Of a stretch of 64,000 nt of DNA, positions 9,594 to 46,926 are shown piece after piece. Source of the DNA: Desulfobulbaceae bacterium. GTDB taxonomy: Bacteria > Desulfobacterota > Desulfobulbia > Desulfobulbales > Desulfocapsaceae. Numbering within the stretch: the stretch's first letter is position 1; every line of letters begins with the position of its first letter. The DNA lies in the NCBI GenBank assembly GCA_016278675.1, contig JADQBJ010000022.1:60570-124569 (forward strand). The letters run 5' to 3'. The notes below the pieces were generated by a model. That model was not told the origin of the DNA. It made no database searches and was given only the letters and a program-made list of their open reading frames with translations. The translations under genes were made by a program, and so were the position numbers.

Positions 9594-9826
9594 TTAGGGG
9601 TAATAAGTTAGAATAACGCCGATATTTATTTTTTACTCAAAGACCATAATATCTTTGAAAGGGTCGGTTGGCGGTGAGCGCAGCGAACCCCAACAATCCA
9701 ACCATCAGACAATTCGAAAATAATTCATTCGCCTGCAGTACCTTAAAAGGACTTTAAGGGATAATCATATATCGGGCTTTCTCGAAGTCGGAACTTATGC
9801 CCGTACTGGTGCCCATCACGGATAAA
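9594..9826. repeat. Mosaic intergenic repeat (ATTAGGGGTAA box, R2 hairpin, R3 module)
   Basis: ATTAGGGGTAA at 9594 also occurs at 2956, 13306 (variant) and inverted at 45917. R2 GGTTGGCGGTGAGCGCAGCGAACCCCAACAAT is at 9666-9697. GGGCTTTCTCGAAGTCGGAACTTATGCCCGTA at 9774 onward is the reverse complement of the module at 34050-34086. Confidence 0.75.
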
Positions 9827-10312: not shown

Positions 10313-10333
10313 ATGGCATCCATTTACATGTTT

Positions 10334-10577
10334 AAAATTTCGTAAAAATTCATTGAAGGTGCCTGGATGGACTCTGCGCTGCGCTTATCGCAAGTCCATC
10401 ATATATTGAAAATATCAGGAGAGTATGCCGTCCGTTAAAGTTGATAATCTCGTAAAAAGTTGCCACGGAGGTTCTCAGATGGCTAGATAAAAAGTTCGAT
10501 ATACAAGGCGCAGTGTTTTTTGAAAGTGGGAGATCGGGCTTTCTCGAAGTCTAGCGCTTATCACGACGCCGTCAAAG
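10334..10577. repeat. Mosaic intergenic repeat, two R1-type cores plus R3 module
   Basis: AAAATTTCGTAAAAATTCATTGAAGGTGCCTGGATGGACTCTG at 10334-10376. A degenerate second core GATAATCTCGTAAAAAG starts at 10443. GGGCTTTCTCGAAGTC is at 10536-10551. The tail TTATCACGACGCCGTCA resembles 46131-46147. Confidence 0.75.
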
Positions 10578-13178: not shown

Positions 13179-13436
13179 CTGAAACTCAGCTGGCTTCTTG
13201 GTGCTACAGGGCTTGAAGATATACAAAAAACCTATATTTAGCGTCATTCCTGCCCCGGATCAGTGCCCTGATGACGGATCGGGACTATAGTGGCAGCAGA
13301 ACAATCATTAGGAGTAAGGAAAATAGGTTCATCAGCAAAAAACCTCGACTTCCTTTCGTCAGCACCAATCAACCGGATCATTGCAAAAGAAATTTGGAAG
13401 AGTAGGTTGGCGGTGAGCGCCGCGAACCCCAACAAT
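13179..13436. repeat. Mosaic intergenic repeat (diverged R4 fragments plus R2 hairpin)
   Basis: CTGAAACTCAGC..CTTCTTGG at 13181 parallels 2826. TCGGGACT...ATTAGGAGTAAGG at 13290-13318 parallels 2935-2968. R2 GGTTGGCGGTGAGCGCCGCGAACCCCAACAAT is at 13405-13436 (1 mismatch to 9666-9697). Confidence 0.65.
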
Positions 13437-24410: not shown

Positions 24411-24437
24411 TAAGTTATCGACGGGCTCTACCGACAA
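24411..24437 (+). promoter_or_regulatory. Sigma-28-type promoter of fliC: TAAG-N15-ACCGACAA
   Basis: TAAG TTATCGACGGGCTCT ACCGACAA, about 125 nt upstream of the fliC ATG. Confidence 0.55.
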
Positions 24438-24523
24438 GATATCAGAAGAGGAAATTTAACGCCAAGGAGGTGATAGAAAAAAATCGCGATCCTCGACAAC
24501 GTAGATAGACAAGATCACAAAAA

Positions 24524-24557
24524 GGGCAAGGATGCCCGCTAACTTACTCATGGAGGA
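24524..24557 (+). promoter_or_regulatory. Putative CsrA-binding sites in the fliC 5' UTR (GGA hairpin plus SD)
   Basis: GGGCA-AGGA-TGCCC hairpin (24524-24537) presents AGGA in its loop. The SD region ATGGAGGA (24551-24558) lies 6 nt before the ATG. Further GGA motifs occur at about 24450 and 24465. Confidence 0.5.
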
Positions 24558-24563
24558 AAAATC

Positions 24564-25724
24564 ATGGCTCTTACAATTAATACTAATGTTGCTTCTCTGA
24601 ACGCCCAAAGAAACCTCGGCGCCTCTCAAACCAATCTGAATAAATCAATGCAGCGGCTCTCTTCCGGTTTGCGTATCAACAGTGCGAAGGATGATGCTGC
24701 CGGTCTGGCTATTTCCGACCGCATGACCTCGCAAATCCGTGGCCTTAATCAGGCTACCCGTAATGCCAACGACGGTATCTCCCTGGCGCAAACAGCTGAA
24801 GGCGCTTTGCAGGAGAGCACCAACATTCTGCAGCGGATGCGAGAAATTGCCGTGCAGTCGTCTAACGATACCAACAGTGATTCCGACCGTGCTTCGCTAA
24901 ATGATGAAGTCGTGCAACTTAAGGCGGAACTTGATCGTATTGCTGAAACCACCCAATTTAACGGCACTTCCGTTATCGATGGCTCAATGAGTAATGCAGT
25001 CTTCCAGGTCGGTGCCAATGCCGGTTCCAACCAGACGATTTCCTTCGGGATTACCAGCGCGAAGGCGGCAGATCTTGGGACGGCTGGAATTGAGGCTGTC
25101 GCAAAGACTATAGCAGAAGGATCTTGGAACGGTTTCGATATAGAAGCTACCTCAGGCACCGGTTCTACCGGCAATGCAGCGTTCGATGTTGTTGTGAAGG
25201 AAGGTACTACTTTAGGTGCGGCATTATCTGGTTCGACAATCACACTGACCCTTGCTGCTACAGCTGGTGGTAACACCGCTACTTTAATTGGTGCTGCGCT
25301 TTCAGGTATAGCCGGTATTGGCGCAGTTGACGTTACTGGGGCCGCTGACGTCACTACGAGCAGTAGTGGTTCCCTTACACTGAATGGTGGTTTTGACCAG
25401 ATAACGACTACTGCAATTGATAAACTCTCCGTATCGACCAGAGATAGTGCTCTGGGCGCTATCAAGAGTGTCGATCAGGCTCTTCAAGAAGTTGACACCA
25501 TTCGCGGTGGCCTCGGTGCGGTTCAAAACCGTTTCGAATCAACCATCGCCAATCTGAACAACGTCGCAGAGAACCTCTCGGCAGCCCGTTCGCGGATTCT
25601 CGATGCCGACATCGCCCAGGAAACCTCGGCGATGACCAAGAACAATATCCTGCAGCAGGCCGGTGTCTCGATCCTGGCGCAGGCCAACCAGGCTCCGCAG
25701 CTGGCTCTTTCCTTGCTCGGATAA
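24564..25724 (+). CDS. fliC: Flagellin
   Basis: Conserved N-terminus ([18 protein letters not shown]...[19 protein letters not shown]) and C-terminus ([25 protein letters not shown]). The central domain is Ser/Thr/Gly/Ala-rich. Confidence 0.96.
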
Positions 25725-28844: not shown

Positions 28845-29309
28845 TCAGGAAATATTTCCTTCCTCGACATCTTTGCCTTCTTTTTTGTCGAAGGAGGGCA
28901 GGGGAGTCTTGGTTTTATACTCGGCGTTTTCCAGAATTACCTGCATAGCTCTGTTGTTTTTAGGCGAGAAGAGGATAGGGGCGGCCAGATTGAGGGTAAT
29001 ATTATGATCGGGAGGCACGGTGACCACACTGAGGGCATAGCATTCCTCTATTGAATCAATCTGCAGGTGATTTTTTTCGCTTTCTTCGGGAATCACCTTG
29101 TAGTCGAGGTAAAAATTGGTAGGATCTGTGAGGACGAAGGCGATAGCGGGATCATCGACGCTTTGAACCCAGAAGAGCGGACCTTCTTTTTTATTGGGCA
29201 TGACAATGAAATCGTGCAGATTGGGAAAGCCAATCAGCCCTGCGGGAAAGTGGAGGAGGTTATCCGGGTCGTATTCAACTTCGCCGAAACGTGTCTCGAT
29301 TTTTTTCAT
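28845..29309 (-). CDS. fliW: Flagellar assembly factor FliW
   Basis: MKKIETRFGEVEYDPDNLLHFPAGLIGFPNLHDFIV...PLFWVQSVDDPAIAFVLTDP is classic FliW. The ATG at 29309 is 2 nt after the csrA stop. Confidence 0.92.
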   Translation of the reverse strand: MKKIETRFGEVEYDPDNLLHFPAGLIGFPNLHDFIVMPNKKEGPLFWVQSVDDPAIAFVLTDPTNFYLDYKVIPEESEKNHLQIDSIEECYALSVVTVPPDHNITLNLAAPILFSPKNNRAMQVILENAEYKTKTPLPSFDKKEGKDVEEGNIS

Positions 29310-29311
29310 CA

Positions 29312-29551
29312 CTATTTCTTATCTTTTTGTTTACCGGGAATGAGCGAGTCCAAATCATCTGGCTGCCAGTGAAGCGCCGCCTCCCTGTTTTCCGCCGATA
29401 TTTGTTCATAGACTTCCTGGCGGTATATCTTCTGTTCTTTGGGGGCGTCGATGCCTATACGGATCCCTCCGCCTTTTACTTCTATGACCTTAATGGTGAT
29501 ATTGTCGCCGATGACAATACCCTCACCGGCTTTCCTGGTCAAAACCAGCAT
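29312..29551 (-). CDS. csrA: Carbon storage regulator CsrA (FliW-partnered type with C-terminal extension)
   Basis: MLVLTRKAGEGIVIGDNITIKVIEVKGGGIRIGIDAPKEQKIYRQEVY followed by a tail of about 30 aa. Start at the ATG at 29551 after the SD GGGAGAG. Confidence 0.93.
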   Translation of the reverse strand: MLVLTRKAGEGIVIGDNITIKVIEVKGGGIRIGIDAPKEQKIYRQEVYEQISAENREAALHWQPDDLDSLIPGKQKDKK

Positions 29552-29645
29552 GATTCTCTCCCGGAAGAACGACAATCCGCACTGAAGCGCAAGCGAATTC
29601 AATGTTTAGTAAATAGCTTAATACTACGGTAACTTATTTTGCAAT

Positions 29646-32277: not shown

Positions 32278-32634
32278 TCAGATCCGTCCCGAGAGCAATC
32301 TGCCGTTTGTTTCCGAAGAGACGGTACCGGCATTTGCGGAATAGGTTGAAGACGAGGTTCTCTTGCCGAAGAATTCCATGGTTTCCCTGATCCAGCCGAG
32401 TGTGGATTTAAAGAGAAAGGCATTCCTGCGGTTTTCATGCCGGATCTGTTCGGCGAGCGGCTGGTCGGCCTTATCGATGCTTTTGACATGCGCCAGAACC
32501 TGAATCAGATCTTCCTTGGCCTTCATGGCGGTGTACATGCCGTCAAGGTTAAGATTTATTGCCTGCTCCCTCTCCTGGATGATCGCATCTTTCAGTGCCA
32601 GCAGATTTTCACGCGTGGTTCCGGCATTCATCAT
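32278..32634 (-). CDS. flgN: FlgN-like export chaperone
   Basis: 118-aa helical ORF between flgM and flgK, the conserved flgN position. Sequence similarity is judged only loosely. Confidence 0.6.
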   Translation of the reverse strand: MMNAGTTRENLLALKDAIIQEREQAINLNLDGMYTAMKAKEDLIQVLAHVKSIDKADQPLAEQIRHENRRNAFLFKSTLGWIRETMEFFGKRTSSSTYSANAGTVSSETNGRLLSGRI

Positions 32635-32957
32635 TATTTTTCCTCAACAATGAACTGCAGCAGGGAAGAAGCGACCTTATGCAGATCAGGTTTGTAGGAA
32701 CCTTCAGCAATCTGTGCCTTGAGGGCCTGCACTTTTGCTGCTCTTTCCGCGCTTATGGTGCTTTCAGACTGTTTTGCCTTGTTCACATCCTGAAGCACTG
32801 CTGAAAATTGTACCTGGTCCGGATTCTGTACGGCTTCCGTCTTTTTCCCCGATTGTGATTTCTGTGCATTCTTTAAATCACCAATCTGTCCCGGTCCGCC
32901 GATTCCAAAAAAATCAATACTCATATCGTCACCCGATTGTTTGAGCTTATTTGCCAT
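32634..32957 (-). CDS. flgM: Anti-sigma-28 factor FlgM
   Basis: C-terminal RAAKVQALKAQIAEGSYKPDLHKVASSLL matches the FlgM sigma-28-binding region. The start is ambiguous, either the ATG at 32957 or the ATG at 32924. Confidence 0.8.
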   Translation of the reverse strand: MANKLKQSGDDMSIDFFGIGGPGQIGDLKNAQKSQSGKKTEAVQNPDQVQFSAVLQDVNKAKQSESTISAERAAKVQALKAQIAEGSYKPDLHKVASSLLQFIVEEK

Positions 32958-33507
32958 CTGCCTCAGCAGCCCAGGCATCAAGCTTTTCCGTTACCGCGGT
33001 AAAGGTGGTGTGTGATATATCCGGCAGTGAACCGCCAAATGCTTCAAGGGCTTCATTGAAACCTTTTTCAACACCTTCTTTTATTGCATCAAGCCTGTCG
33101 GCATCGCGGTCGGCCGCAGCTATGGCGAATTTTACTATACGATCCGATGTCTGTCCAACACCAAAATAGCCGTCTTCCGCTATAAGTTCAGCGGCTTCTT
33201 CCCGGCTGATTTGGCCTATATCGATCTCCGAATCAGCAGCGGCTATGACAGAGTTGGCACCTTGTTCACCGAGCAGAGTAGCAACAAGTTTACGGAGTAT
33301 TTCGTAGCCCTTATCCGCAATCTCTCCGGAAGAAAAAGGAGAGCAGTAGGTTGTGGCCGGTGTTGAGCTCTGTTGAAGGGTTACTGTATCCATGGCTGCT
33401 TTTTGTGAACCGGATTCTCTTCTTTTATCCACTCGTTCGCGAGGCCGATGATCTGCATTGGCTGCCTTCGCATCCAAAGCCAATCCATTACTGATAGAAT
33501 TAACCAT
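32947..33507 (-). CDS. DUF5610-like hypothetical protein, first gene of the flgM operon
   Basis: 186-aa ORF. The C-terminal pattern GVGQTSDRIVKFAI...DRLDAIKEGVEKGFNEALEAFGGSLPDISHTTFTAVTEKLDAW resembles DUF5610 proteins (recalled, not searched). The ATG at 33507 sits 7 nt after the SD AAGGAGG. Confidence 0.6.
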   Translation of the reverse strand: MVNSISNGLALDAKAANADHRPRERVDKRRESGSQKAAMDTVTLQQSSTPATTYCSPFSSGEIADKGYEILRKLVATLLGEQGANSVIAAADSEIDIGQISREEAAELIAEDGYFGVGQTSDRIVKFAIAAADRDADRLDAIKEGVEKGFNEALEAFGGSLPDISHTTFTAVTEKLDAWAAEADGK

Positions 33508-33510
33508 TCT

Positions 33511-33572
33511 GCCGCCTCCTTGCGAAAAAAACTCATGCATCCATGCATGCTTTCTTTATATTTCTCTATTTA
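33511..33572 (-). repeat. 62-nt leader repeat, copy 1 (5' UTR of the DUF5610-flgM operon)
   Basis: Identical at 59/62 positions to 33859-33920. It contains the palindrome CATGCAT-GG-ATGCATG (33534-33549) and the SD CAAGGAGG. Confidence 0.9.
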
Positions 33573-33573
33573 T

Positions 33574-33600
33574 ATATCGGCTTTGCTACAGAAAACTTTA
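33574..33600 (-). promoter_or_regulatory. Sigma-28 promoter: TAAA-N15-GCCGATAT
   Basis: The minus strand reads CTAAAG TTTTCTGTAGCAAA GCCGATAT, a full match to the sigma-D/sigma-28 consensus with canonical spacing, about 65 nt upstream of the DUF5610-like ATG. Confidence 0.75.
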
Positions 33601-33858
33601 GTACCTTGCTCCACAAAAGCTGACAAAATTTACAAAAAGACGGGAAATGTATTTGAAATCGCAAAACTACATCTACAACCAAGGTACTTATACCCCTCGA
33701 GAGGGTACTGAACAAAGTCGAGCTCAGCTGGATTAGAACGAACTCGTCTTTTAAAAAAAAGTATTAACGTTGTCCTTTCAGGACTCATCGTGTGTGCGCA
33801 ATGTCTCCGGTGGTTAAAACCACCGGCTATACGACCCAATCCCTTCGGGATTCGTGTT

Positions 33859-33920
33859 GCCGCCTCCTTGCGAAAAAGAATCATGCATCCATGCATGCTT
33901 TCTTAATATTTCTCTATTTA
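33859..33920 (-). repeat. 62-nt leader repeat, copy 2 (no promoter box, no downstream start codon)
   Basis: Direct repeat of 33511-33572. On the minus strand it is followed by hairpins at 33838-33852, 33807-33826 and 33772-33784, then a T8 tract (33753-33760). Confidence 0.9.
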
Positions 33921-34000
33921 CAACAAAATTTTTTTCCGGAGCCCATGCCCGCATGGGAATCTCCTATGAGATCCGTTGGACCCCGTTGTAATTCAACTCT

Positions 34001-34195
34001 GATAATTCGTAAAAAGTCATTGAAGGCACCGGGATGGACTCTGCGATAAGCACCCCTACGGGCATAAACTCCGACTTCGAGAAAGCTTGATGGTAGGCGT
34101 AGTATCTGAAACGGCGATTTGGTAGTACATGTGGTACGGCAAATCGTCGTTTCAGATCTACAACGACGTAGATCGAGCTTTTTACGAGTCCATCA
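34001..34195. repeat. Mosaic intergenic repeat, most complete R1 copy
   Basis: Components in order: core GATAATTCGTAAAAAGTCATTGAAGGCACCGGGATGGACTCTG (34001-34043); R3 module CCGACTTCGAGAAAGC (34071-34086); 17-bp-stem hairpin TCTGAAACGGCGATTTG/CAAATCGTCGTTTCAGA (34105-34156); hairpin GATCTAC-AACGAC-GTAGATC (34155-34174); tail TACGAGTCCATC abutting the flgJ-like stop. Confidence 0.85.
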
Positions 34196-34501
34196 TTTGA
34201 TATTGCCTTTCAGCTGATCATACATCGCTTCACCGATTCCCATACCCTTCCCGGCTGCTGTTTTTCGTGCCATTTCCATATCCAGCATTTCCTCGAACAT
34301 AGTCGTGGCGGAGGATTTCTCCAAAAGGCCTCCTTCGGGAATGTTTTTTCGCATGGCTTTATACATTTCATTTATGTATATAGCCTCAAATTCACGGGCT
34401 GACTGACGAAGCTGTTTATCGTTTTTCGCCTTGTCAGGGGCAACCGACGGTGAGGTCGGTGTAACGGACTGGGTAATTCTCGGGTCTATTTGCAGATTCA
34501 T
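34193..34501 (-). CDS. flgJ: Rod-binding protein (FlgJ N-terminal domain only)
   Basis: The 102-aa ORF has SAREFEAIYINEMYKAMRK...MFEEMLDMEMARKTA, a FlgJ rod-binding-domain pattern. There is no muramidase domain. It follows flgI. Confidence 0.8.
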   Translation of the reverse strand: MNLQIDPRITQSVTPTSPSVAPDKAKNDKQLRQSAREFEAIYINEMYKAMRKNIPEGGLLEKSSATTMFEEMLDMEMARKTAAGKGMGIGEAMYDQLKGNIK

Positions 34502-34515
34502 GATATAAAAAAAAG

Positions 34516-35640
34516 TTATAGTATTATGAGTTCACCCTGCATGGAGCCGGATGCCTTGATTGCTTGAAATATGGCGATGAGATCGCGAGGAGTGGCGCCG
34601 ATGGCGTTGAGGGCGCTCGCTATTTCGCCGATGCTCACGCCATGGGGAAGATCCAGGACCGTAAGCCGACCTTCTTCTTCGACGACCTCGAGCGAAGTTT
34701 CCCGAGTGACGACGGTTTCTCCTTCACCAAGCGGATTTGGCTGAATGACATCCTCGTATTCCTTGACGACAAGACTGAGATTGCCGTGCGAGACGGCAAC
34801 GGTAGAGAGCTTGACGTCTTTACCCATGACGATGGTTCCGGTACGCTCGTTCACAACCACGCGGGCCACGGAATCGGATAGTATTTCAATGGATTCGACT
34901 TCGGAAACAAAGGAGACAACATTGTCTTGGTTCGACTCCGGTATATGAACAATTACTGTTCCGGAATCATTGGGAAAAGCAGTATTTTTACCAAATATCC
35001 GATTGATGGAATCGCTCATCCTGGTGGCAGTGGTGAAGTCGGCATTATTGAGTTGGTAAACTATTTTTCCTTCTTCGCCGAGTTCTACCGGGACGGTATT
35101 TTCAATAATCGCACCGTTGGAAATTCTGCCGACGGTCGGATGATTTTTCTGAGCTTTGGCCGCTTTTCCACCAAAGGAAAAAGCGCCGATGGACAATGGT
35201 CCCTGAGCTACGGCATAGACGTTGTCATCGGCCCCTTTGAGCGGCGTCATCAACAGGGTGCCCCCGGCCAGGCTGTCTGCATCGCCCATGGAGGAAACGA
35301 GCACATCGATCCGACTGCCCGGCCGTGAAAAAGGCGGCAGGGTGGCTGTAACCATTACCGCGGCAATATTGTCGATTTTGACTCCGTCAAGTTCCTTGGG
35401 ATCAATAGAAATACCGTTTCTTACCATCATATTGTATATGGCCTGCAGGGTGAAAGTGGTCTTCTTCATATCGTCACCGGTGCCGTTGAGACCGGTGACA
35501 AGACCATATCCAATCAGCTGGTTGGTACGTACGCCGTGCAGGTTGGCGATGTCTTTTATACGCGCTGAATAGGCAGGAGCGGCGATAAAGAAAACGATGA
35601 TGGTGATAATCAGGGTTCGTGAAAATTGAGTGAATTTCAT
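34516..35640 (-). CDS. flgI: Flagellar P-ring protein FlgI
   Basis: Signal peptide followed by RIKDIANLHGVRTNQLIGYGLVTGLNGTGD, the canonical FlgI motif. Confidence 0.95.
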   Translation of the reverse strand: MKFTQFSRTLIITIIVFFIAAPAYSARIKDIANLHGVRTNQLIGYGLVTGLNGTGDDMKKTTFTLQAIYNMMVRNGISIDPKELDGVKIDNIAAVMVTATLPPFSRPGSRIDVLVSSMGDADSLAGGTLLMTPLKGADDNVYAVAQGPLSIGAFSFGGKAAKAQKNHPTVGRISNGAIIENTVPVELGEEGKIVYQLNNADFTTATRMSDSINRIFGKNTAFPNDSGTVIVHIPESNQDNVVSFVSEVESIEILSDSVARVVVNERTGTIVMGKDVKLSTVAVSHGNLSLVVKEYEDVIQPNPLGEGETVVTRETSLEVVEEEGRLTVLDLPHGVSIGEIASALNAIGATPRDLIAIFQAIKASGSMQGELIIL

Positions 35641-36346: not shown

Positions 36347-37294
36347 TTAAATTATAACCTCCACAATTCCAGGTGCGGTAACCTTGCAATAAATAAGTTT
36401 ATTGGAGCTGGCATTGCGAACCCTGATCACTTCATTGAGCTTACCGTCCGTATTGGCAATCCCGGTCGCTGTCAGAACTAACCGGCGCTGTCTGATGAAA
36501 ATTTTGACAAACTGCCCTTTTTGAACAATTGCCGGAAATTCGACATCCGAGGTGTTGATGACATTGCCGGCTCTGACCGAACGGGTCAACCGCTTACCGA
36601 GGATGGAGCGCACATCCAGACAGGGATCTTTAAGCTCGGTAATATCCTTGCGGACCAGGTGAATGTTGTCCGGGGTGATGATTGCACCTCTTTCCAAGGG
36701 AGTGGTAGCTGCCACAGTGGAGGCGATGGCCTCGATTTTTCCCGGTATTGACAGATTTTCTCTTACCCTGCCGTCAACCCGAATGATAATGGCAAAACGG
36801 GTACTGTCGATAATGGAAGGACTTGATGGAATAATTTCCCAGGTGAGATCGCCTTTCGGAACCGAAAAGGGAAGGGGCATCGCTCCCGAAATAAAACGAA
36901 TATCGGCATCCGGCAATTGATTTTTATTATTTTCCAGATAGACGCCGATCTCGTTCTCTATCATCTTCGGTACTATCCGTACTCCCTGACGAAAAACCTT
37001 GACTGTCGCGGACCCGGACCAGAGAGTCGATCTGGACAGGGTGGTTTTGCGGATGATATTTTTGATGATATCCGTGGAACGAAGAAATTTCTGCTCGCCC
37101 GGTTCGGGAGATTTGGAAATTACCTGGTCGGCGAGTGTGCGGGTCAGATCATTATCCGTATCGAATTCAACAACATCCCCCAGGGTAATAAATTTATCGG
37201 AAACATCTGCTTTAGAGAGAAAAGAGATTTCCAGGGCATGGGCCGGTACGCCGATAGCAACAAAAAGCAAAATCACAGAATATCTTAGTAACAT
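36347..37294 (-). CDS. flgA: P-ring assembly chaperone FlgA
   Basis: Signal peptide and a C-terminal SAF-like segment (LTRSVRAGNVINTSDVEFPAIVQKGQFVKI). Positioned between flgG and flgH. Confidence 0.8.
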   Translation of the reverse strand: MLLRYSVILLFVAIGVPAHALEISFLSKADVSDKFITLGDVVEFDTDNDLTRTLADQVISKSPEPGEQKFLRSTDIIKNIIRKTTLSRSTLWSGSATVKVFRQGVRIVPKMIENEIGVYLENNKNQLPDADIRFISGAMPLPFSVPKGDLTWEIIPSSPSIIDSTRFAIIIRVDGRVRENLSIPGKIEAIASTVAATTPLERGAIITPDNIHLVRKDITELKDPCLDVRSILGKRLTRSVRAGNVINTSDVEFPAIVQKGQFVKIFIRQRRLVLTATGIANTDGKLNEVIRVRNASSNKLIYCKVTAPGIVEVII

Positions 37295-38965: not shown

Positions 38966-39219
38966 GGATAACAGGCAGCTAATATTATAATAAAATGGTG
39001 TTTTTTGATGCTGATCAGCAGTTGACGCGCAATCGGTATTTCGCGGAGATTTTGGAATGAAATTATATTTTGGATTGTCAGGGGACATGGATTCCGGAGT
39101 TCTGATTGGATCCGGAAAGACGTTTAAAGGGAATTGCGGATATATGGAAGTTGTCGTGCCCGGTGGAAAGGCCGGCAAAAAGACCTTCTGTCCCGGGTTT
39201 TTAAGAATTTAAGAGAAAC

Positions 39220-45791: not shown

Positions 45792-45916
45792 ATAAAAAAC
45801 TCATTGAGTTTTGTTAAATAGATCAGTTTGATAAAGGAGTGACAAGACTTGCTGATGCAAGAAAAACGCCAGATTAAGTTACCGAAAAAAGTAGCATTAA
45901 ATAAATTACCTGATTG

Positions 45917-46146
45917 CCCCTAATCCTCAGCTCAAAGTCGGGACTGCTCTTTTCACGGGTCTCTGCAGCCCGGACGGCTGCAGCGAAGCCCCCATGGACG
46001 GGGTTTATCGCGTCCCTATGAAAAGAGCAGTCCCGGCCTGGGCAGAAAAATGCTGAGTTTCAGGGGGAATCAGAATAAATTATGATAATATCGTAAAAAT
46101 TCATCTAAGGTACCGGGATGGGCTCTGCACAGTTATCGCGACGCCA
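45917..46146. repeat. Mosaic intergenic repeat inserted between fliR and flhB (R4 palindromic module plus R1 core)
   Basis: R4 spans 45917-46065, with a 16-bp outer stem GGGACTGCTCTTTTCA (45940-45955) / TGAAAAGAGCAGTCCC (46019-46034) and an inner hairpin CTGCAGCC-CGGAC-GGCTGCAG (45963-45983). It is the reverse complement of 2823-2963. The R1 core GATAATATCGTAAAAATTCATCTAAGGTACCGGGATGGGCTCTG is at 46084-46127. Confidence 0.85.
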
Positions 46147-46926
46147 TCAATTGAGATATTGCAGCAGGGAGAAGATTCGATCCGGCAGCATGTCAAATTC
46201 CCGACTTAAAAGGATCTTTACCAGTCCTAAAGTCAAACCAATGACGGCGAAAGAAATACCAATGTTGATGGGGAAGGAGAGCAGGAATACATTGAGTTGC
46301 GGAAAGGTGCGGGAGAGAATGCCCAGGATAAGCCCGGACAGCAACAGGATAACGAGGATTGGTGCACTGAATTGAACGCCCAGGATAAACATCCTGGTGG
46401 AAAGCTCGACAAGATAGGGAACGGCTTCGCCGCTGAAGTTGAGATTTCCGGGAGGTAGAATCTCATAGGAATGAACTGCCGTCCGGATGAAGTAATGGTG
46501 TATGTCCAGGGAAAGAAAGATCAGAATTGCAAATACGTTCTGGAATTGCGAGATAAGTGCTGTCTGACGCTGATTCTGAGGGTCGAAAATATTTGCCGCT
46601 GCAAATCCCATCTGATAGCCGATAATAGTGCCGCCGAACTCGACTGATATAAAGATAAAACGAGCGATGAGACCGATCATCATGCCGAGCAAGGTTTCAT
46701 TGATCACCAGAAGGAGAAATGCCGGTGGTCTGAAATCGACATCGACAACATAAGGCTGCAGCAGCGGAAAAAGGACGAGGGAGAGTGCTATGACCAGTCC
46801 TGCTTTCAGCCTCATCGGTGTCTGCGCTCCGAAGTACACCGGTATTGCCGTCAGAAAACCGGCTACTCTGGAAGTGCAGACGGCAAAGTTCTGGAACTGT
46901 TCAACCGGCAGGAGATCGAGATACAC
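46147..46926 (-). CDS. fliR: Flagellar export apparatus protein FliR
   Basis: 259-aa polytopic membrane ORF with a FliR-like pattern, following fliQ. Confidence 0.9.
   Translation of the reverse strand: MYLDLLPVEQFQNFAVCTSRVAGFLTAIPVYFGAQTPMRLKAGLVIALSLVLFPLLQPYVVDVDFRPPAFLLLVINETLLGMMIGLIARFIFISVEFGGTIIGYQMGFAAANIFDPQNQRQTALISQFQNVFAILIFLSLDIHHYFIRTAVHSYEILPPGNLNFSGEAVPYLVELSTRMFILGVQFSAPILVILLLSGLILGILSRTFPQLNVFLLSFPINIGISFAVIGLTLGLVKILLSREFDMLPDRIFSLLQYLN

Follow-up and report, generated by a model that had tools for sequence, protein, structure and literature searches.

In Bacillus subtilis, where CsrA is partnered by FliW, its classical target is flagellin mRNA: it reportedly acts on the leader of the flagellin gene hag as part of a partner switch between Hag, FliW and CsrA (Yakhnin 2007; Mukherjee 2011; see also PMC6529632). 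A CsrA dimer can bridge two sites that lie about 10 to 63 nt apart, with an optimum near 18 nt, and the known CsrA sponges either hold many sites or are very abundant transcripts. In Campylobacter jejuni CsrA binds mainly flagellar mRNAs, among them that of flgM, which was co-purified with CsrA and gel-shifted by it (Dugar et al. 2016, PMC4894983). In that species the leader of flaA holds two GGA motifs 21 nt apart, with high-affinity CANGGANG loops, and can titrate CsrA; together with the Salmonella fimAICDHF leader it is one of the described decoys that derive from a 5' untranslated region (5' UTR; PMC4894983). Here we analyse a 64-kb stretch of DNA from a Desulfobulbaceae bacterium (the window, to which all coordinates refer and which is the part of the genome visible to us), in which a 63-nt leader (copy 1) precedes an operon that encodes a DUF5610-like protein, the anti-sigma-28 factor FlgM, FlgN, FlgK and FlgL, and in which the same leader recurs 285 nt further upstream as a second copy (copy 2). 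A search of the literature available to us returned nothing on CsrA-FliW in Desulfobacterota, nor on DUF5610.

The combined reading that we favour, to which we give a probability of roughly two in three, is that copy 1 is a CsrA-type leader and copy 2 a strain-specific, probably neutral insertion. Taken separately, the architecture and conservation of copy 1 make it very likely a CsrA-type leader, and comparison with close strains makes copy 2 likely a non-conserved insertion. Already known are the mechanism itself and the binding of flgM mRNA by CsrA in C. jejuni; what is added here is a conserved and unusually clean leader, very probably of the CsrA type, that heads the flgM operon in Desulfobulbales.

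The locus shares with hag a sigma-28/sigma-D promoter, one GGA in a hairpin loop plus another in the Shine-Dalgarno sequence (SD), and csrA and fliW as neighbours in the late flagellar cluster. It differs in that the leader heads a DUF5610-like gene and flgM rather than flagellin alone, in its diderm Desulfobulbales host, in the csrA-fliW order and in being known from sequence alone. To C. jejuni flaA it is similar in GGA spacing, which is close to that of the copy 1 family, and in its CANGGANG-type loops, and flgM is a CsrA target in that species; there, however, hairpin loops hold both flaA sites, and CsrA has a lower affinity for flgM, for which no conserved leader has been described. In contrast to C. 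jejuni, the flgM-operon leader here is as well conserved as the flagellin leader and more uniform. If CsrA acts on it, the CsrA-FliW switch would extend beyond flagellin across an order of sulfate-reducing and sulfur-cycling bacteria. The operon under control would be that of the anti-sigma-28 FlgM, the chaperone FlgN and the hook-filament junction proteins, so that translation of a checkpoint regulator would be tied to flagellin export. Cultured relatives exist (Desulfogranum, Desulfosediminicola and Desulfobulbus elongatus).

A GGA-hairpin leader before the flgM operon

On the minus strand the order is flgI, the FlgJ-like gene, a 685-nt spacer, the DUF5610-like gene, flgM, flgN, flgK, flgL, csrA and fliW. 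The features of concern are the following, with scores from a covariance model of the leader (R1) that is described below.

33510-33572, minus strand: leader copy 1 (L1), essentially the entire 5' UTR of the operon; R1 46.4 bits, E = 1e-17
33534-33549, minus strand: L1 hairpin CAUGCA-UGGA-UGCAUG, with its loop GGA at 33540-33542; predicted high-affinity CsrA site
33515-33522, minus strand: L1 SD CAAGGAGG, with the second GGA at 33517-33519; predicted second CsrA site
33574-33600, minus strand: sigma-28 (FliA-type) promoter TAAA-N15-GCCGATAT of the DUF5610-like/flgM/flgN/flgK/flgL operon; perfect consensus
33858-33920, minus strand: leader copy 2 (L2), hairpin 33882-33897, SD-like CAAGGAGG at 33863-33870; R1 37.5 bits
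24513-24566, plus strand: flagellin leader; R1 25.6 bits, E = 2e-8, also found by a model-free scan
32947-33507, minus strand: DUF5610-like gene, first of the operon, 186 aa; weak Pfam DUF5610 match, below cut-off
32634-32978, minus strand: flgM (anti-sigma-28 factor); Pfam FlgM E = 2e-13
29312-29602, minus strand: csrA; Pfam CsrA E = 1e-25
28845-29312, minus strand: fliW; Pfam FliW E = 1e-35
34193-34501, minus strand: gene of the FlgJ-like rod-binding protein
34516-35640, minus strand: flgI

The initial annotation had reported a 62-nt direct repeat with an offset of 348 nt. The repeat is real and the offset stands, the unit being 63 nt: a repeat finder gives 33510-33572 versus 33858-33920 as identical at 60/63 positions (95%), and the self-match has a blastn E of 2e-21, which places it far above chance expectation. 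The palindrome CATGCATGGATGCATG (CATGCAT-GG-ATGCATG) occurs on the minus strand of the 64 kb just twice, at 33534-33549 and 33882-33897, and in both copies CAAGGAGG follows downstream (33515-33522 and 33863-33870), so the palindrome with a UGGA loop and the SD after it were correctly described. The fold is a stem of 6 bp closed by the UGGA loop and lengthened by flanks that are rich in A and in U. The setting of copy 1 is likewise as annotated, with a perfect sigma-28 box (33574-33600) just before it and the operon ATG just after: copy 1 starts 2 nt past the box, and the ATG (33505-33507) lies 2-3 nt past its end. From loop GGA to SD GGA the distance is 23 nt. An in-frame ATG within the hairpin (33540) leads gene callers to report a 197-aa product, the SD-spaced ATG at 33507 (GTG in strain types B and C, defined below) being the likelier start. 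The hairpin is followed by U7 with an A-rich tract beside it, and a consensus scan finds it terminator-like on both strands; it does not have the marks of a conserved intrinsic terminator or attenuator, its stem having only 6 bp with 3 G-C pairs and the U-run being missing in most orthologous leaders.

We fetched 80 species-level genome loci and found the leader in 21 further metagenome loci (together about 100 Desulfobulbales loci), compared the 130 nt upstream of the orthologues of the 186-aa gene, and aligned 79 leaders. Upstream of nearly every orthologue in the 80 loci the elements stand in one order, namely TAAAG-N15-CCGATA, a GGA-loop hairpin, a spacer of 10-15 nt, GCA(A/G)GGAGGC and ATG. 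The sigma-28 box is at the equivalent place in nearly all of these loci and in strain types B and C, and the layout of sigma-28 box, GGA-loop hairpin, GGA-containing SD and ATG is also found in the 21 metagenome loci; a DNA-pattern scan of metagenomes for the leader gave 0 hits. The loop GGA and GCA-GGAGGC are invariant across the 79 leaders and the letters of the stem are free to vary, with 29 distinct 5-nt arms in a Python hairpin survey (for example CUGCA/UGCAG, GGCC/GGCC, CAUGCA/UGCAUG, CCGGCA/UGCCGG and GAGCA/UGCUC). The distance from GGA to GGA is 20-24 nt in 71/75 leaders, and the CsrA motif CANGGANG/ANGGA is matched by 55/79 leaders and by all three window hairpins, A(N)GGA being present in 79/79.

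The model R1 was built from a seed of 48 leaders with 6 pairs, and all matches were then re-aligned to it. In this alignment 87.5% of the cells hold standard pairs, compared to 65% when columns are shuffled and 20-45% when one partner is displaced by 1-3 columns. The covariation for which the initial annotation had proposed searching relatives was found, as compensatory double changes occur at 6/6 pairs, in 96 cells; the independent Python hairpin survey agrees with this picture. Moreover, csrA lies downstream of the operon in 43/50 related loci with a sufficiently long flank. A search of the whole window against Rfam at the gathering threshold returned three tRNAs only, and at E <= 10 the region 33400-34300 gave only miRNA-type noise on a long hairpin and no relevant family. 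With about 100 examples and absent from Rfam, the covarying motif of about 55 nt is thus a candidate for curation as an RNA family.

Run on the whole window with its filters off, R1 gave three significant matches only, copy 1 (46.4 bits), copy 2 (37.5 bits) and the flagellin leader (25.6 bits). The flagellin match terminates exactly at the flagellin ATG (gene 24564-25724) and comprises a hairpin GGGCA-AGGA-UGCCC (24524-24537) and an SD CAUGGAGG (24549-24556), with 22 nt from GGA to GGA; upstream of it is a sigma-28-like box TAAG-N15-ACCGACAA (24411-24437). Between strain types A and B the flagellin leader has no more than 75% identity, yet hairpin, SD and a start-less AAGGAGGUGA are all kept. 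The genes csrA and fliW lie about 4 kb downstream of the leader copies in the same cluster, and their Pfam matches bear out the FliW-partnered csrA of the initial annotation. Its proposal that copy 1 is built like the leaders that CsrA represses also gains from these comparisons and now goes well beyond likeness in a single sequence, as that architecture is conserved in about 100 loci with compensatory stem changes and R1 matches the flagellin leader as well.

In the mechanism that these features make most likely, sigma-28 would begin transcription a few bases into copy 1, and one CsrA dimer would bridge the loop GGA and the SD GGA, covering the SD, excluding the 30S subunit and blocking the translation start of the first gene. 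Its neighbour flgM has its ATG (32976-32978) 29 nt ahead of the stop codon of that gene, and since the two genes overlap by 32 nt, flgM would probably be affected too, as repression could spread to it by translational coupling. Flagellin export would then free FliW, which would sequester CsrA and lift the block, as in the flagellin circuits of Bacillus and Campylobacter. Because the flagellin gene has the same two-site leader, both late flagellar transcripts would obey one CsrA/FliW switch.

Two side observations concern additional GGA sites. On the plus strand at 24461-24472, about 60 nt upstream of the flagellin GGA hairpin, an SD-like AAGGAGGUGA without a start codon is present in the flagellin 5' UTR, also in the type B contig L002, and may be a third CsrA site. 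In Desulfobulbus-type leaders an extra 5' hairpin AACAGGAAG...CCUGUU with its own GGA lies about 60-80 nt upstream of the start codon, before the conserved hairpin (L037, L039, L043, L045, L056, L065, L070, L073, L079, L084 and L085), so that these leaders may have three GGA sites.

The second copy and three strain types

The spacer around copy 2 was compared among strain types drawn from contigs whose FlgJ-like protein is identical to that of the window or whose 186-aa protein is a close variant. Its segments in the window are as follows.

33921-34192, strand not assigned: segment U, a mosaic of dispersed intergenic repeats after the flgJ stop, missing in type B
34155-34192, 34099-34161, 34044-34086, 34000-34045 and 33942-33957: parts of segment U, respectively module c, a long hairpin, module b, module a and a palindrome
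33736-33857, minus strand: segment X, a hairpin-rich repeat resembling repetitive extragenic palindromic (REP) elements, with hairpins at 33838-33852, 33807-33826 and 33772-33784 and a T8 run at 33753-33760
33573-33735, minus strand: segment M, promoter-proximal, common to all three types, with 88-89% identity from position 33695 downwards

With these segments the three types read as follows, percentages being identity to the window.

Type A (window, L001, L004, L005 and L087): identical; spacer U - L2 - X - M - L1
Type B (L002, L003 and L006): 95% upstream and 89% downstream; 305-nt spacer with a single leader and sigma-28 box, no U, L2 or X
Type C (L088, equal to L089): 91-94%; spacer U - X - M - L1, no L2

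Copy 2 retains the two GGA sites, 23 nt from each other, and a perfect hairpin. As the initial annotation had noted, it has no sigma-28 box and no start codon (no ATG, GTG or TTG 4-12 nt after the SD); nor is there a sigma-28 or sigma-70-like site upstream of it on the minus strand, and its sole terminator-like feature is its own weak hairpin with U5. The three short hairpins and the T8 run reported after it are present, and the segment 33745-33860 folds better than shuffled versions (z = -3.6). That this segment lacks an open reading frame (ORF) is correct only with regard to credible genes: a mechanical 88-aa ORF (33630-33896) spans it, of which a gene caller called 84 aa on L001. This ORF was rejected as a gene because it matches no Pfam or NCBIfam family, starts inside copy 2, which is missing in a close relative, and runs over the sigma-28 promoter. 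An 85-aa plus-strand ORF (33792-34049), also without a Pfam or NCBIfam match, was rejected too.

Comparison of the types shows what separates them. Samples that gave type A contigs include ERZ27277067, ERZ23500262 and JGI 3300032098. Type C is known from a single 1.2-kb metagenome contig deposited twice (GCA_023268315.1; JGI 3300033553), L089 being the same contig as L088, so this type is represented by one contig. In it U and X are joined directly as GTTGTAACAGG, with no copy 2: the junction reads ...AAATTTGTTGTAACAGGAATCC... versus ...TTTTGTTG[TAAATAG...GGCGGCA]ACACGAATCC... in the window, the difference being a leader-length piece (61-63 nt) only, with 2-3 nt of microhomology at the junction. 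A second leader copy is found in none of the 80 genome loci nor in the 21 further metagenome loci. Copy 2 and the single leaders of types B and C share GAUUCUUUUU, and copy 1 has the derived GAGUUUUUUU, a distribution which makes the copying event older than two substitutions of copy 1.

These findings bear on the initial annotation in three respects. A 348-nt tandem or segmental duplication, of which copy 2 would be a relic, was rejected: just 63 nt are repeated, and type C, whose flanks are joined without the copy, differs by 63 nt alone and keeps X and M. Recombination between the leader copies was rejected as well, as it would not give the type C pattern. Second, the annotation had taken beforehand close relatives without the duplication as speaking against a conserved decoy or small RNA (sRNA); types B and C are such relatives, and no other species has a second copy. 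Third, the hairpin-rich segment does not derive from the leader. Type C has X without copy 2, so X is a REP-like element present independently; it is missing in type B, and a part of it (33806-33849) is 84% identical to L002 5423-5466, which is another intergenic region of that related strain. The T8 run is not kept in type C, where L088 has TTTTCATCC.

Parsimony favours an insertion in lineage A. Copy 2 most probably arose in that one strain lineage by templated insertion, for which a template switch during replication or repair would be the simplest mechanism, and it is most likely neutral, at most adding CsrA sites to read-through RNA from the upstream flgJ operon. It is of lesser import than copy 1 and shows a short regulatory leader copied into a repeat-rich spacer that rearranges fast, between two blocks of REP-like repeats. 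The types provide three natural variants to compare, with two copies, with one copy, and with one copy whose loop has CC, as set out below.

Competing explanations

Several points weigh against the combination of a CsrA-type copy 1 with a neutral copy 2. As to copy 1, CsrA action is read from sequence architecture and from co-occurrence with csrA and fliW only, and the pair counts given above were taken from an alignment fitted to the structure of R1 itself. RNAalifold predicted no pairs on a plain MAFFT alignment of the 79 leaders, which is explained by two hairpin classes, that of GGCC-AGGAU-GGCC among them, being shifted by a single column. Counted without the model, the architecture occurs with a start codon 2 times in the window, which does not exceed simulation (mean 0.9), and weight can therefore be placed only on positions and conservation. 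The only leader of type C, moreover, has a UCCA loop (CATGCAT-CC-ATGCATG) instead of UGGA, L088 454-469 corresponding to window 33534-33549; if the UCCA is real, the loop site can be lost. As to copy 2, it is 0-1 change from the inferred ancestral leader and copy 1 has 2-3 derived changes, which could hint at constraint on copy 2, although counts this low allow no conclusion. Insertion in A is preferred to a precise deletion in C on parsimony and on one 1.2-kb contig. Finally, as the flagellin leader holds a conserved start-less AAGGAGGUGA, a start-less SD is by itself no proof of junk.

With regard to the type C loop, UCCA is the change expected from flipping the centre of the palindrome, and the U-run there is 1 nt shorter. 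Such a leader would be a natural knockout of the loop site.

The alternative that survives best, though we consider it unlikely, makes copy 2 ancestral to types A, B and C, lost by a precise microhomology deletion in C and by a larger deletion in B, and thus a relic, for example of a lost upstream gene with the same leader. It draws on the occurrence of GATTCTTTTT in copy 2 and in the single leaders of B and C versus the derived GAGTTTTTTT in copy 1, by which the duplication predates at least 2 substitutions, and on the promoter region, which differs by 8% between B and C and by 11-12% between either and A; as B and C are closest there, one loss on a B+C stem costs as many events as a gain in A. 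However, recombination between the copies would have taken X and M too, and type C keeps both; every outgroup species has a single leader and neither U nor X, so that an extra gain step is required; and X is unlike the 5' end of the gene, so that nothing is seen of a coding sequence that was lost.

Less probable again is that copy 2 is a functional, recent CsrA decoy, transcribed either as an extension of the flgJ operon mRNA or from a promoter in U that escaped recognition, which would titrate CsrA and tune translation of flagellin and of the flgM operon. Copy 2 keeps the full two-site unit, scoring 37.5 bits with R1, and is nearer than copy 1 to the inferred ancestral leader; the minus strand has no canonical terminator between the flgJ stop and copy 2, which makes read-through plausible. 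Like the CsrA-titrating RNAs (CsrB/RsmZ and 5' UTR decoys), it would present two GGA sites identical to those of a true target leader and no start codon, and the flagellin leader likewise has a conserved start-less SD-like site. The titrating leaders of C. jejuni flaA and Salmonella fim are precedents (PMC4894983). Copy 2 differs from such RNAs, however, in having two sites and no recognisable promoter or terminator of its own and in occurring in one strain type. It is missing in two close strain types, with no second copy in about 100 other loci, and upstream of it the minus strand holds nothing promoter-like. A single extra two-site unit would be a weak sponge beside the known multi-site antagonists, the protein antagonist FliW is already present, and the downstream hairpins are a generic repeat outside copy 2, with a T8 run that is not conserved.

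A more speculative version, and an improbable one, sees a decoy caught at birth, in which a leader copy dropped into the untranslated tail of the flgHIJ transcript would shift the set-point of flagellin and FlgM in one lineage. FliW-type systems are not known to have CsrB-like sRNAs; if this reading is true, copy 2 would show in nature how such systems come by CsrA antagonists that derive from leaders.

Least probable by our estimate is that the leader hairpin is no CsrA site and serves as a terminator or attenuator, an mRNA-stabilising stem or the site of another protein: the U7 after it, its A-rich flank and the terminator-like call on both strands speak for this, but other species do not keep the U-run, the letters of the stem vary around an invariant loop GGA, neither termination nor stabilisation accounts for the fixed 20-24 nt to an invariant SD GGA, the very 5' end of the RNA lies outside the hairpin, and the same motif stands at the flagellin gene and co-occurs with csrA-fliW.

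Dispersed repeats and the 186-aa protein

The protein encoded by the first gene of the operon has 495 homologues, of which every named one is from Desulfobulbales (Desulfogranum, Desulfobulbus). It matched no NCBIfam family and no PDB entry by sequence profile, and the best Foldseek hit against the PDB had E = 0.27. In a metagenome protein scan the nearest relative was 57% identical and no further strain variants were found. Its AlphaFold model has a mean predicted local distance difference test score (pLDDT) of 60, with about 63 disordered N-terminal residues and a helical C-terminal domain that holds a conserved DGYFGVEQTSDRIVDFA motif. The predicted disorder of the N-terminus is reminiscent of flagellar export substrates.

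Segment U has blastn matches elsewhere in the window at 1350-1464, 2701-2740, 9776-9812, 10329-10401 and 46083-46149, all in spacers between co-directional genes of unrelated function. Its modules are about 40-50 nt long; module a has the minus-strand consensus GCAGAGTCCATCCCGGCACCTTCAATGAATTTTTACGAAATTATCA, and module c is a 10-bp hairpin directly after a stop codon. The family of dispersed modules, which takes in 34000-34197, was not found among 80 other Desulfobulbales species. U and X both have the hallmarks of REP-like repeats or of miniature inverted-repeat transposable elements (MITEs): they occur in several unrelated spacers, form hairpins and are present or absent between strains. As in REP elements, bacterial interspersed mosaic elements (BIMEs) and MITEs, short hairpin-forming modules recur in several spacers and vary between close strains; they differ from the described REP families in having no sequence relation to them and in being seen in this lineage only. 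Module a was considered as a gene-specific promoter that would drive copy 2 and was rejected: it sits between unrelated co-directional genes and is thus a generic intergenic repeat. Inspection of module a by eye for a sigma-54-type -24/-12 box gave no convincing match.

Just after the flgJ stop lies the long near-perfect hairpin (34099-34161), with 18-nt arms that are 94% complementary. The plus strand has a sigma-70-like site TGGACC-18-GATAAT (33977-34006), followed by a hairpin with T5 at 34155-34184; this putative site and the hairpin could delimit a plus-strand transcript, about 170 nt long, that would be antisense to the spacer. The metagenome contigs L004 and L005 break within this region of the long hairpin and the plus-strand site.

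Upstream of flgH-flgI-flgJ, inside flgA, a second perfect sigma-28 consensus TAAA-N15-GCCGATAT lies on the minus strand at 36900-36926. It may be due to chance or may be a strain-specific internal promoter; since type B lacks it, it was set aside as a promoter for transcripts reading through to copy 2, and it is not relied on here.

The spacer between a 137-aa gene and flgF (38966-39208 versus L002 5398-5536) is non-homologous between types A and B, with an X-like hairpin repeat in type B; this second non-homologous spacer points to repeat turnover in several spacers of the flagellar cluster. Two further repeats were seen in the window, a 44-nt element of 91% identity at 9654-9697 and 13393-13436, and a 160-nt element of 86% identity, present in inverted orientation at 2823-2977 and 45903-46065 and containing the palindrome CTGCAGCC..GGCTGCAG.

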